The notes under the pieces are model-generated. The model saw only the letters and a program-made list of their open reading frames with translations. It searched no databases and was not told where the DNA came from. Below are positions 6,285-15,339 of a stretch of DNA of 64,000 bases, piece by piece (position 1 is the first letter of the stretch; each line of letters opens with the position of its first letter). Made by a program: the position numbers and the translations under genes. Where the stretch lies: positions 348,863 through 412,862 of the forward strand of contig JADJFN010000001.1 of assembly GCA_016708565.1 (NCBI GenBank), read 5' to 3'. The stretch is from Myxococcales bacterium (GTDB taxonomy: Bacteria; Myxococcota_A; Polyangia; Haliangiales; Haliangiaceae).

Positions 6285-9200
6285 GTGGCTGAGCGCACCA
6301 GCACCGTGACGACGTGGGCGCTGGCCCGCGAGCTGCCGTCGGGCGCGACCACGTGGGCGCCGGTGGTGGCGCCCGAGCTGTGCGCGTTCGGCGACGGCGA
6401 CGCGCCGGCCGACGAGCTGCGCGTGTTCCTGGCCGAGCACCTGGCGACCGCGCCGGCGGCGCAGGTGGCGCGGTACTTCGTGCCGGCCGGCCTCGAGGTG
6501 GTGGCGATCGCGGTGCCGCTGGCGCCGGGGGCGCCGACCAAGCCGCGGGCGCCGCGCGACGTCGAGGTCACCTGCGTGCTCCTGCCGTACGGCCCCGAGG
6601 GCCGCGATCGCGTGGCGCTGGTGCCGGCGCTCGATGCGGCGTTCTTCGTCGATCGCAAGGAGGAGGTGGGCGAGGTGGCGCGGCGCGAGATCGCGCGGCT
6701 GTGCGCGGCCAGCGGCCTCGACGGCAACGCCTGGCGCCGCCTGCTGCCGCCGCTGGCGGCGTCGATCGAGCCGCTCGAGGTGCTGGTGCGGTTCGCGCAG
6801 GCCGAGGTCACCGGCGCCGATCGGGTCGCGGCCGAGGAGCGGCGCCGGGCCCGCGAGCGGCTCGAGGCCCACGCGGTGCCGCTGGCCGATCGGGTGCGCG
6901 GCGGCGGCGCGGCGCTGGTCGGGCGCGATCGCGAGCTGGCGTCGATGACCGCGCTGCTGGGCGGGCGCGAGCGGCTGGCGGTGCTGGTGTGCGGCGACGA
7001 GGGCGTCGGCAAGACCGCGATCGTCCTCGCGTGGGCCCGGGCCCAGCCGCAGCGCGCGGCGTGGGTGACGTCGGTGGCGCAGCTGGTGGCCGGCGCGTCG
7101 GGCTTCGGCGAGGCCGAGGCCCGGGTGGCCGACCTGTTCGCGGCGGCCGAGCGGCTCGACGCGGTCTTGTGCTTCGACGACTTCGGCAGCCTGTTCCGCG
7201 AGCGGGTCGAGGACGGCGGCCTGGGCCTGACCGCGATCGTGCGCCGGTTCATCGTCGACGCGCGGGTGCGGGTGGTCGCCGAGATCACGCCGGCGGCGCT
7301 GGAGCGCGCCGAGCGCCGCGAGGTGGCGCTGATCGGCGCGATGACCCGGCTGACGGTGCCGGCGATGGACGCCGCGGCGACGCTGGCGGTGGTGACCGGG
7401 CGCGCCGCGCACTGGCGCCGCGCCGACGCGCGCCGGCCGCAGCTCGCCGCCGCGGCGTTGTCGGTCGCGGTCGAGCTGGCGCGGCGCTACCTGCCGTACC
7501 GCGCGTTCCCCGGCAAGGCGGTGACGCTGCTCGACGATCTGCGCGCCGCGGCCGACGGCGAGGTCGGCGCCGACGGCGCGCCGCGCGAGCTGGGCCCCGA
7601 CGCGGTCTACGACGGCTTCGCCGCGGCCACCGGCGTGCCGGCGTTCCTCTTGCGCGACGATCGGGCGCTGCTCCTCGACGAGCTGATCGCCCGGCTGCGC
7701 ACGCGGATGATCGGTCAGGAGGCGGCGGTGGCGCGGGTGGCCGAGACGCTGTGCACGGTCAAGGCGCAGCTGCAGCCGGCCGACAAGCCGCTGGCGACGT
7801 TCCTGTTCGTCGGGCCGACCGGCGTCGGCAAGACCGAGCTGGCCAAGAGCCTGGCCCACCTGCTGTTCGGCTCCGAGGGGCGGCTGGTGCGGTTCGACAT
7901 GAGCGAGTACGCCGATCCATGGGCGGCCGAGCGGCTGATCCGCGGCAGCGACGCCGGCGAGGGCCTGCTGACCGCGCGGATCCGCCAGCAGCCGTTCGCG
8001 GTGGTGCTGCTCGACGAGATCGAGAAGGCGCACCCGGCGGTCCACGATCTGCTGTTGCAGGTGGCGGGCGAGGGCCGGCTGACCGACGCCCGCGGCCGCA
8101 CCGCGTACTTCCACAACGCGATCGTGATCCTGACGTCGAACCTCGGCGCCCACGGCCGGGCCGCGGCGATCGGCCTGGCGGTCGGCGCCGGCGACGACGA
8201 TCGCGCGCGCGAGCTGGCGCGCTACCGGGCCGCGGTGACCGAGGCGTTCCGCCCCGAGATGCTCAACCGCCTCGACGCGATCATCCCGTTCCATCGCCTC
8301 GACGCCGCGCAGATCGCCGCGGTCGCGGGGCTGGCGCTGGCCCAGCTCTCCGAGCGGCGCGGGCTGGTCCAGGCCAGCATCACGCTCGACGTCAGCCCGG
8401 CGGCGGCGGCGGCGCTGGCGGCCGGCGGCTACGCCCCGGCCTACGGCGTGCGCGCGCTGCGCCGCCACCTGGATGAGGCGGTGATCGCGCCGGCGGCGCG
8501 GCTGGTGGCGCGGCTGGGCAAGGACGCCCACGGCGCGCTGCTCGCGGTGCGCACCGTCGACGAGCCGGCCGCGGTCGACCTGCCGGCCGGCGCGCACCTG
8601 GGCACCACCGAGCCCGAGGCCGGCGTGGTGGTGGCGGCGTGGCGGCGCGGCGGGGCCGGCGGTCGCAAGAACGCCCGCGGCGCGCTGGCGGTGGCGGCGG
8701 TGCGGCGGGTGGCCGACACCTGGATGCGCCACGACGTCGCCACCGAGGTGAAGACCCAGATCGCGTGGCTGAAGTCGCAGCTGGCGCGCGGCGCGGCGCA
8801 GCCCGGCGGCGCGCAGGCCGGCAAGCGCAAGAAGGCGGCGCTGTCGAGCGCGCAGGTGCAGCAGATGAGCATCGAGCTGGCGCGGCTCGAGCGGGCGTGG
8901 GACGCCGCGGCCGCGGCGCAGGAGGACCTGGCCGCCGCCGAGGAGCTGGCGATCGCCGCGGCCCAGGCCGGCGACGACGTCGAGGCGGCGGTGGCGATGG
9001 CGGGGCCGCTCGAGGACGCGTTCACGACCGCGATGTTCTGGCTGGCGGTGGCGCGGCGCGAGGATCGCGACGAGATCACGCTGACCTTGTCGGCGCCCGA
9101 GCACCCGCGCGCGCTGGGCCGCTGGGTGACCGGCATGCTCGAGCTGGCGGCGGCGCGCGGCTGGACCGTGCACGCGCACCCGACGGTGGCCAAGGAGCCG

Positions 9201-15339: not shown

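Follow-up and report, generated by a model that had tools for sequence, protein, structure and literature searches.

Three co-inherited Hsp100-type ATPases with release-factor-like C-terminal modules in Myxococcota: a candidate ribosome-directed AAA+ machine

Few bacterial protein families are as well studied as the Hsp100/Clp unfoldases and the release factors. ClpA, ClpX and ClpC are docked onto ClpP by loops of the IGL, IGF or VGF type. In bacterial class-I release factors (RF), domains 2 and 4 bind the decoding centre of the 30S subunit and domain 1 binds the L11 stalk; PrfH lacks domain 1 and keeps the GGQ motif. In the Pex1/Pex6 hetero-hexamer a hydrolysis-dead tier of first AAA+ modules (D1) is combined with an active tier of second modules (D2). 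A review of release-factor evolution mentions AAA+ proteins solely for the Vms1-Cdc48 pair (PMC6514570), and no description of a Clp-release-factor fusion was found in the searchable literature. Here we analysed a stretch of 64,000 nucleotides from a Myxococcales bacterium (GCA_016708565.1, contig JADJFN010000001.1, positions 348,863 to 412,862 of the forward strand; in the following, the window), in which three consecutive genes, P1, P2 and P3, encode a triad of Hsp100-type ATPases, with RF-like modules at the C-termini of P1 and, probably, P2. We consider the structural description of this triad very likely to be right. That the triad is a ribosome-directed, probably heteromeric unfoldase is our preferred reading, to which we assign a probability of roughly 45%.

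The three genes follow each other on the forward strand:

6285..9707, + strand: gene P1, 1140 amino acids (aa); N-terminal domain (N-domain), degenerate D1, active-looking D2 with D2-small, RF-like C-terminal module
9704..13072, + strand: gene P2, 1122 aa; layout as in P1; GTGA overlap with the P1 stop
13069..15339, + strand: gene P3, 756 aa; N-domain, degenerate D1, and D2, without a C-terminal extension; ATGA overlap with the P2 stop

A sequence-only reading of the window had proposed these three consecutive genes with GTGA and ATGA overlaps, and its coordinates and junctions proved exact. At the P1/P2 junction (cgccGTGAagc) the GTG start of P2 is at 9704 and the TGA stop of P1 at 9705-9707, and at the P2/P3 junction (ggccATGAgc) the ATG start of P3 is at 13069 and the TGA stop of P2 at 13070-13072. 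Judged by these overlaps, the three genes are translationally coupled. The G+C content of the window is about 76%, which produces long spurious open reading frames (ORFs) in every frame. In a plot of G+C by codon position, third-position G+C was 0.95-1.00 and second-position G+C low, unbroken across P1, P2 and P3 including the N-domains and C-terminal extensions. Between 6285 and 15339 this coding-type pattern occurred only in the three + strand frames of the earlier reading, which confirms all three ORFs. P3 ends stop-to-stop against a convergent LysR-type gene. A promoter and terminator scan, Rfam and a tRNA scan returned nothing.

Behind the D2-small domain, P1 and P2 continue with extensions of about 400 aa and 373 aa, respectively. 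The extension of P1 comprises the following features:

8508..9704, + strand: P1 C-terminal module (aa 742-1140); beta unit, four-helix bundle and alpha/beta domain, corresponding to RF1/RF2 domains 1, 2 and 4
9327..9401, + strand: P1 motif LLLGLEVGAHRF..PCH; counterpart of the RF sequence 'FESGGHRVQRV' in RF domain 2 (hhalign)

P1-type sequences were taken from the alignment of full-length orthologues, which yielded P1-type proteins only (P0122-P0241, with P0197 99% identical). A Pfam scan of 42 P1 extensions found PCRF as the sole recurrent family (9 members, best E 4.3e-6), and the extension of the window copy matched it with an E of 0.15. The AlphaFold2 model of P1 residues 740-1140, built with 63 orthologues, reached a pLDDT of 92.5 and a pTM of 0.85 and consists, in this order, of a small beta unit, four long helices and an alpha/beta domain. 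The first 47 Foldseek matches of this model were all RF1, RF2, mtRF1 or PrfH, with E-values down to 4e-8. A sequence search of the PDB with the profile of the module gave nothing meaningful. In hhalign the profile aligned to residues 132-214 of E. coli RF1 and placed LEaGlHRF on FESGGHRVQ (E 4.7e-4), and a larger profile aligned to a small profile of RF2, RF1 and the P3-type protein P0026 over 256 columns with 92.7% probability (E 4.3e-7). Within the module the ExGxHR motif is strongly conserved (E 100%, G 100%, H 91%, R 89%). The GGQ-bearing RF-1 domain (domain 3) had no Pfam match in any member examined, and GGQ strings were rare in the family members and located at scattered, non-homologous positions. 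We conclude with high confidence that the C-terminal module of P1 is derived from a bacterial class-I release factor that lost its GGQ domain. Part of the module is also matched by P0121, a 'hypothetical protein' of 228 aa from a Kofleriaceae metagenome-assembled genome (MAG), which is 53% identical to 56% of the P1 extension and may represent either a fragmented gene or a portion of the module that stands on its own.

A less diverged RF copy was found at the C-terminus of P0026, a P3-type protein of 1080 aa encoded in a triad of 1126, 1126 and 1080 aa (locus L086):

L086:10001-13243 (GCA_002344285.1 DDTA01000212.1): gene for P0026; its C-terminal extension is a less diverged RF2 copy

P0026 contains a full PCRF domain with 57.8 bits at a Pfam cut-off of 24. 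In BLASTP it aligned to residues 7-217 (4e-17) and 285-359 (9e-5) of E. coli RF2; residues ~218-284 have no counterpart, so that the GGQ core is missing. This RF2-like copy looks younger and may stem from a second fusion, or it may preserve the ancestral state. The gene for P0026 is followed by two small genes of 129 and 270 aa, the first of which overlaps the P3 stop.

The extension of P2 was more difficult to place:

11951..13069, + strand: P2 C-terminal module (aa 750-1122); diverged relative of the P1 module, probably RF-derived

No Pfam or PDB sequence match was obtained for this module, and neither a comparison with the single E. coli RF1 sequence nor a plain hidden Markov model (HMM) comparison with RF1 and P0026 gave a match; a weak collinear signal appeared only with larger profiles. 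With these, hhalign aligned the P2 to the P1 module over 266 collinear columns (E 8e-5, 61% probability) and placed EhGtH on LEaGlH. The two extensions had been described as unrelated-looking, a view which this collinear alignment overturns. In a weaker alignment with the RF profile, LLPvVR of P2 superposes on the IRSY/IRTY segment of RF domain 4. An HMMER scan of 1.84 billion representative sequences retrieved 99 relatives of the P2 module, all of them P2-type proteins or fragments. From these profile alignments we regard an RF origin of the P2 module as likely, with less certainty than for P1.

The ATPase core of the three proteins was examined by alignment with E. coli ClpA and ClpB and by tabulating motif frequencies over 156 P1, 68 P2 and 190 P3 orthologues. 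The modules and the tripeptides discussed below are located as follows:

6840..7664, + strand: P1 D1 AAA+ module; Walker A GDEGVGKT kept, Walker B FDD, Arg fingers lost, pore loop SGFG
7665..8507, + strand: P1 D2 and D2-small; Walker A/B, sensor-1 and Arg finger intact, GYVG loop shortened and without aromatic
8169..8177, + strand: P1 IGL tripeptide; within one residue of E. coli ClpA KSIGLI in the alignment
10349..11128, + strand: P2 D1 module; Walker A GSGRA (Lys to Arg), Walker B FDD, no Arg fingers, pore loop YFG
11129..11950, + strand: P2 D2 and D2-small; catalytic motifs intact, shortened pore loop with aromatic (GDRFTPDG)
11621..11629, + strand: P2 IGF tripeptide; at the ClpP-loop position by alignment
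13630..14418, + strand: P3 D1 module; Walker A kept, Walker B ADR, no Arg fingers, pore loop YLG
14419..15336, + strand: P3 D2 and D2-small; catalytic motifs intact, shortened pore loop without aromatic
14923..14931, + strand: P3 VGF tripeptide; at the ClpP-loop position by alignment

All three proteins matched Pfam AAA_2 (E ~1e-39) and ClpB_D2-small together with a weaker AAA match in D1 (in P1, AAA_2 covers aa 501-666 and ClpB_D2-small aa 672-741), and the ClpA model of NCBIfam aligned from D1 through D2. This bears out the two-module Clp/Hsp100-type architecture that the sequence-only reading had assigned. The absence of a ClpB M-domain, which it had also stated, is seen as a gap of about 90 columns opposite the M-domain of E. 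coli ClpB. The label 'double-AAA+ ATPase' holds for the presence of two modules and overstates D1, which lacks the catalytic residues. In D1 the Walker A sequence GK[ST] is present in 100% of the P1 and 99% of the P3 orthologues, and P2 has Lys in 76% and Arg in 23%, the window copy being one with Arg. The canonical Asp-Glu of Walker B is Asp-Asp in P1 and P2 and Asp-Arg in P3 (Arg in 94% of the orthologues), and the Arg fingers (RR in ClpA) are replaced in all three. With no Walker B Glu and no Arg fingers, D1 would not be expected to hydrolyse ATP, judging from what is established for AAA+ enzymes; it is predicted to be catalytically dead in all three proteins and may still bind nucleotide. 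In D2, Walker A and B, sensor-1, the Arg finger and sensor-2 are kept among the orthologues of all three paralogues.

The pore loops differ between the subunits. At the position of the D1 loop (KYR in ClpA) P1 reads SG[LF]G, P2 [YH][LVF]G and P3 YLG (Tyr in 98%). The D2 loop (GAPPGYVG) is 5-6 residues shorter and has no aromatic residue in P1 and P3, and W or F is found in 79% of P2. With a degenerate D1 and a non-canonical pore loop in D2, the triad subunits are not ordinary two-motor unfoldases. At the position of the ClpA IGL loop a tripeptide is conserved in each paralogue, namely [LI]G[LI] in P1 (Gly 96%), [IV]GF in P2 (Gly 98%, Phe 97%) and [AV]GF in P3 (Gly 100%, Phe 98%); E. coli ClpB reads FGE here. 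At the level of the motif, this tripeptide is a predicted ClpP-docking element.

One explanation to be considered is that the three genes are ordinary ClpA, ClpB, ClpC or ClpV orthologues, a recent and decaying duplication, or an anti-phage module. The source annotations 'ClpC' and 'AAA family ATPase' as well as partial PADLOC matches to DolB and PDC-M37B would fit this. However, the best NCBIfam matches, ClpB and ClpA, scored 261-315 bits at curated cut-offs of 993-1232, and the TssH/ClpV, ClpK and ClpG models also remained below their cut-offs (885-1900 for the named equivalogs). Ordinary orthologues and a recent duplication are ruled out by these scores, by the spread of the triad, by paralogue-specific scores and by the intact ORFs. 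Anti-phage defence was rejected as well, as the PADLOC matches cover the D2 AAA core only, the neighbours are housekeeping and signalling genes, and the locus context is chromosomal and vertically conserved, unlike a defence island. We consider this group of explanations extremely improbable.

Alignment of the paralogues with each other was confined to the AAA core, where they are 35-37% identical. Outside the core, each protein begins with its own N-domain:

6285..6839, + strand: P1 N-domain (~aa 1-185); no known family
9704..10348, + strand: P2 N-domain (~aa 1-215)
13069..13629, + strand: P3 N-domain (aa 1-187); mostly beta with two helices, no close solved relative

Pfam gave no match for any of the three N-domains, and the Clp_N double-repeat domain was not found, in agreement with the earlier statement that a canonical Clp N-domain is missing. 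A PDB sequence search with the N-domain profiles returned nothing meaningful, and comparison with the HicB-type antitoxin fold gave no unambiguous structural match. In hhalign the N-domains of P1 and P2 matched with 84% probability (E 7.8e-6) and those of P1 and P3 with 58-61% (E 9.7e-5); homology between P2 and P3 was not detected directly. Based on these profiles, the three N-domains are plausibly distant homologues. The shared fold that had been suggested for them thus has support for P1 with P2 and for P1 with P3, and the direct P2-P3 link was not recovered.

The triad is widespread in Myxococcota. For P3 there are more than 120 full-length orthologues and hundreds of relatives of full length, and those with a named source all belong to Myxococcota. 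A profile of the P3 N-domain and D1 found 187 relatives in contigs with one genome per species, the best 80 of which served as loci. These span Kofleriaceae, Haliangiales, Polyangiaceae, Minicystis rosea and Archangium gephyra as well as a Myxococcaceae MAG. In tblastn with the paralogue-specific N- and C-terminal domains, P1-P2-P3 occurred in the same order and spacing in 45 of the 53 loci that had enough upstream DNA to be tested. The arrangement is therefore conserved as a unit. The eight exceptions, from Sorangium, Byssovorax and a Polyangiales MAG, have only the P3-type gene at the locus. In Sorangium sp. So ce385 the other two genes were found elsewhere:

L090:8001-16542 (CP150337.1): P1-type and P2-type pair of Sorangium sp. 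So ce385, 1196 aa and 1203 aa

A 310-aa gene sits between the two, the P3-type gene is distant (e.g. L052, L060), and both proteins keep their own C-terminal modules (E 2e-79 and 3.5e-50). No lineage examined has lost any of the three genes, even where the operon is split. The scores of each paralogue against its own orthologues exceeded those against the other two by a factor of 2.5-4. These paralogue-specific scores and the broad spread of the triad indicate that the triplication took place before the Myxococcota classes diverged, and with ancient paralogues and intact ORFs there is no sign of a recent tandem duplication with decaying copies. One complete triad, typical of Kofleriaceae-type loci, was found on a contig labelled 'Acidobacteriota bacterium' (L042, JBLMXA010000572.1), which is probably a mis-binned contig rather than a family member outside Myxococcota.

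The three proteins might also form independent homo-hexameric Clp ATPases with distinct substrate or adaptor specificity, which are co-transcribed and do not co-assemble. The strong divergence of N-domains and C-terminal extensions between the paralogues and the distant position of the P3 gene in Sorangium speak for this. It is opposed by the translational coupling, by the co-retention of all three genes even where the operon is split, and by the complementary pore loops, with an aromatic residue of D2 only in P2 and a D1 Tyr only in P2 and P3. We judge such separate rings to be quite improbable.

Expression data come from presumed counterparts in Myxococcus xanthus. In strain DK1622 the consecutive genes MXAN_4823 (1149 aa), MXAN_4824 (1127 aa) and MXAN_4825 (836 aa) are listed as 'ClpA/B family' and were not studied further (PMC11423568 Table S1). 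They were reported to 'consist of one operon' and were upregulated after 8 h of chloramphenicol treatment with log2 fold changes (log2FC) of 3.57, 2.67 and 2.61; in chloramphenicol-adapted cells the values were 1.47, 2.17 and 1.92 (PMC6617876). Order, sizes and annotation suggest that MXAN_4823-4825 are the counterparts of our triad, and we presume so also because the triad is present in Myxococcaceae and Archangium loci (L083, L082). No literature was found under the RS locus tags or the protein accessions.

Myxobacteria live among producers of translation inhibitors. The triad could accordingly be a ribosome-protection or antibiotic-tolerance factor whose RF modules enter the drug-blocked A site, where the ATPase would dislodge the drug or recycle the ribosome without proteolysis. 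The RF-like nature of the modules and the persistent upregulation of the presumed M. xanthus operon in adapted cells (log2FC 1.47-2.17) are compatible with this. However, a module without domain 3 cannot reach the peptidyl-transferase centre, which is the chloramphenicol site, no resistance phenotype of MXAN_4823-4825 was tested in the study concerned (PMC6617876), and the conserved ClpP-type loops would be left without a role. A protection factor is thus an improbable solution.

The same induction can be read in another way. The authors of the transcriptome study understood it as an unfolded-protein response (PMC6617876), and the triad may be a general unfoldase or disaggregase for proteotoxic stress, possibly a ClpP activator, in which the RF modules have no link to the ribosome and have taken on structural, oligomerising or regulatory roles, such as that of an M-domain-like helical bundle. 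The intact D2 motor and the conserved ClpP-type tripeptide are in line with this, as are the poor conservation of the RF decoding loop and the lack of a ribosome-related gene linked to the operon. Yet the RF fold without domain 3 is kept across hundreds of sequences at about 30% identity, its most conserved residues are those of the ExGxHR motif of RF domain 2, and this constraint exceeds what a spacer needs. Moreover, shortened D2 pore loops, without aromatics in P1 and P3, suit bulk unfolding poorly. We see a stress unfoldase as a serious competitor that is nevertheless rather unlikely.

According to our preferred reading of a ribosome-directed, probably heteromeric unfoldase, the operon would encode an Hsp100-type AAA+ machine specific to Myxococcota and made of three subunits that diverged long ago. 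P1, P2 and P3 would share a single mixed ring in which the D1 tier is static and the D2 tier does the work; a mixed ring with divided labour is suggested by the D2 aromatic found only in P2 and the D1 Tyr found only in P2 and P3. The GGQ-less RF modules would tether this ring to the ribosome, probably at an A site that is vacant or obstructed because translation has stalled. Such targeting to the A site or the stalk is proposed because RF domains 2, 4 and 1 contact these surfaces in known structures. The D2 motor could then remodel or extract a ribosome-bound component, for instance a nascent chain or an attached factor, which may be handed to ClpP. The conserved tripeptide keeps the idea of a protease partner alive, and the rise of the presumed M. 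xanthus counterparts under chloramphenicol is what one would expect if the operon responds to stalled translation.

Several observations weigh against this reading. The loop of the P1 module at the position of PxT/SPF is about 8 residues shorter than in E. coli RF1, and P0026 reads PPE in place of SPF. With the decoding elements not kept, the module may be re-used for a task unrelated to ribosomes. Foldseek TM-scores of the P1 model to whole release factors were low (0.2-0.4), which we attribute to the absence of RF domain 3 and a different arrangement of the remaining domains. The match of the P2 module to the RF profile is weak (E 7.8e-4, 25% probability, 263 collinear columns), and most P3 proteins lack an RF module altogether. 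With D2 pore loops cut as short as these, efficient threading into ClpP seems unlikely. Nor does the operon have a consistent neighbour among ribosome, rescue or ClpP genes. The orthology of MXAN_4823-4825 is presumed from gene order, length and annotation, chloramphenicol also causes general proteotoxic stress, and the authors of that study ascribed the induction to the degradation of unfolded protein (PMC6617876).

The neighbourhood of the triad is conserved only within clades. Neither tblastn of the window neighbours nor an all-vs-all clustering of neighbours across 83 loci revealed a fourth universally conserved gene; the synteny is clade-specific. By tblastn, clpP was absent from the window, as had been noted earlier for a cognate protease gene, and from 85 related myxobacterial loci, and no genuine RF gene was found near the triad. 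Upstream and divergent, the region 1-6198 contains a gene for an 831-aa alpha-2-macroglobulin-like protein with Big_5, bMG3 and MG2 domains, and additionally a long ORF that extends past the window start and a gene for a 434-aa protein, neither with a Pfam match. The alpha-2-macroglobulin-like and 434-aa genes stand beside the triad only in a 96-98% identical relative (L004), and the long ORF does not recur beyond this relative either. The link of the operon to the divergent pair described by the sequence-only reading is thus local synteny only.

Downstream of the operon, the region 16927-23538 contains genes for a Ser/Thr kinase, an FHA protein, a 613-aa TPR protein and a PilZ protein, all on the - strand, followed by MgsA/RarA on the + strand, and this Pkinase-FHA-TPR-PilZ-MgsA block adjoins the triad only in close Kofleriaceae (~60-98% identical). 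The region 23936-30919, with an HDOD protein, a hybrid histidine kinase (receiver and Hpt) and a receiver-PAS-GGDEF-EAL protein, is a cluster of second-messenger signalling genes. Unlike the clade with the kinase block, another has Crp/FNR, Rce1-like and TonB_C genes as neighbours, with ClpX further away. In a Kofleriaceae/Haliangiales subclade a Crp/FNR-type regulator lies directly downstream of P3 and a canonical clpX about 8 kb downstream, an arrangement confined to that clade and probably synteny. Between 39292 and 46054 the G+C content of the window drops to 0.67, compared with ~0.76 otherwise. This segment holds TRAP-transporter genes (DctM, TAtT) and a family-5 solute-binding protein and may have been acquired horizontally or merely show the composition of membrane proteins. 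Two of these features are given here by position:

21571-22050, - strand: PilZ gene, near the second-messenger cluster
L024, L029, L030, L033, L040, L043, L048, L050, L057, L061, L062 and L069-L073: loci with clpX and the Crp/FNR-type regulator

If the preferred reading of a ribosome-directed unfoldase is correct, the triad would open a new way of dealing with stalled translation in bacteria. A GGQ-less RF module under strong constraint on a motor with dead D1 and trimmed pore suggests ribosome targeting rather than bulk unfolding. Even if the connection to the ribosome should be wrong, the triad would still offer a clean case from nature of a bacterial Hsp100, probably heteromeric, in which the labour is split between the subunits.

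Compared with ClpA and ClpC, the triad shares two tandem AAA+ modules, an AAA_2-type D2 with D2-small, the absence of an M-domain and the tripeptide at the IGL position. It differs by the lack of Clp_N, of the D1 Walker B Glu and of the D1 Arg fingers, by the shortened GYVG loop of D2, by the RF-like C-terminal modules of 370-400 aa on P1 and P2, by the presence of three obligate-looking paralogues and by scores far below the ClpA equivalog cut-off. Similarity to the ClpB/Hsp104 disaggregases shows in ClpB being the best-scoring NCBIfam model (282-315 bits) and in an identity of about 40% in D2. In contrast to these disaggregases, the triad has no M-domain coiled coil between D1 and D2, its D1 is predicted to be dead and a ClpP-type loop is present. 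Pex1/Pex6 resembles the triad in its paralogous subunits, dead D1 and live D2, as far as the states predicted for the triad go; it is eukaryotic, consists of two paralogues and belongs to another AAA+ clade, and the hetero-oligomer of the triad is our own deduction.

On the side of the release factors, the fold of the P1 module corresponds to RF domains 1, 2 and 4 with the ExGxHR motif, and the module of P0026 is similar to E. coli RF2 (4e-17). Unlike RF1, RF2 and PrfH, the modules of P1 and P0026 lack the GGQ domain 3 and the conserved PxT/SPF loop and are fused to an AAA+ ATPase instead of being free-standing. An analogous logic is offered by Vms1 (ANKZF1) and Cdc48/p97 in eukaryotic ribosome quality control, where an RF-fold module is likewise coupled to a double-ring AAA+ unfoldase (PMC6514570). 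However, Vms1 is an active enzyme of the archaeo-eukaryotic eRF1 fold, which is unrelated, and it joins Cdc48 non-covalently, whereas the bacterial-type, GGQ-less RF of the triad is covalently fused. By this analogy the triad might be a bacterial counterpart of Vms1-Cdc48 quality control built from different parts, a hetero-hexameric ring that docks on the A site of stalled ribosomes; we consider this specific equivalence doubtful, and if true it would mean a convergent logic with the eukaryotic system and a ribosome-rescue or quality-control pathway so far undescribed in bacteria, accessible in the tractable M. xanthus through the presumed counterparts MXAN_4823-4825. The individual parts belong to known families, and it is their combination that appears undescribed: an Hsp100 with dead D1 and trimmed D2, a ClpP-type loop, a private N-domain and a fused GGQ-less RF, distributed over three co-inherited paralogues.

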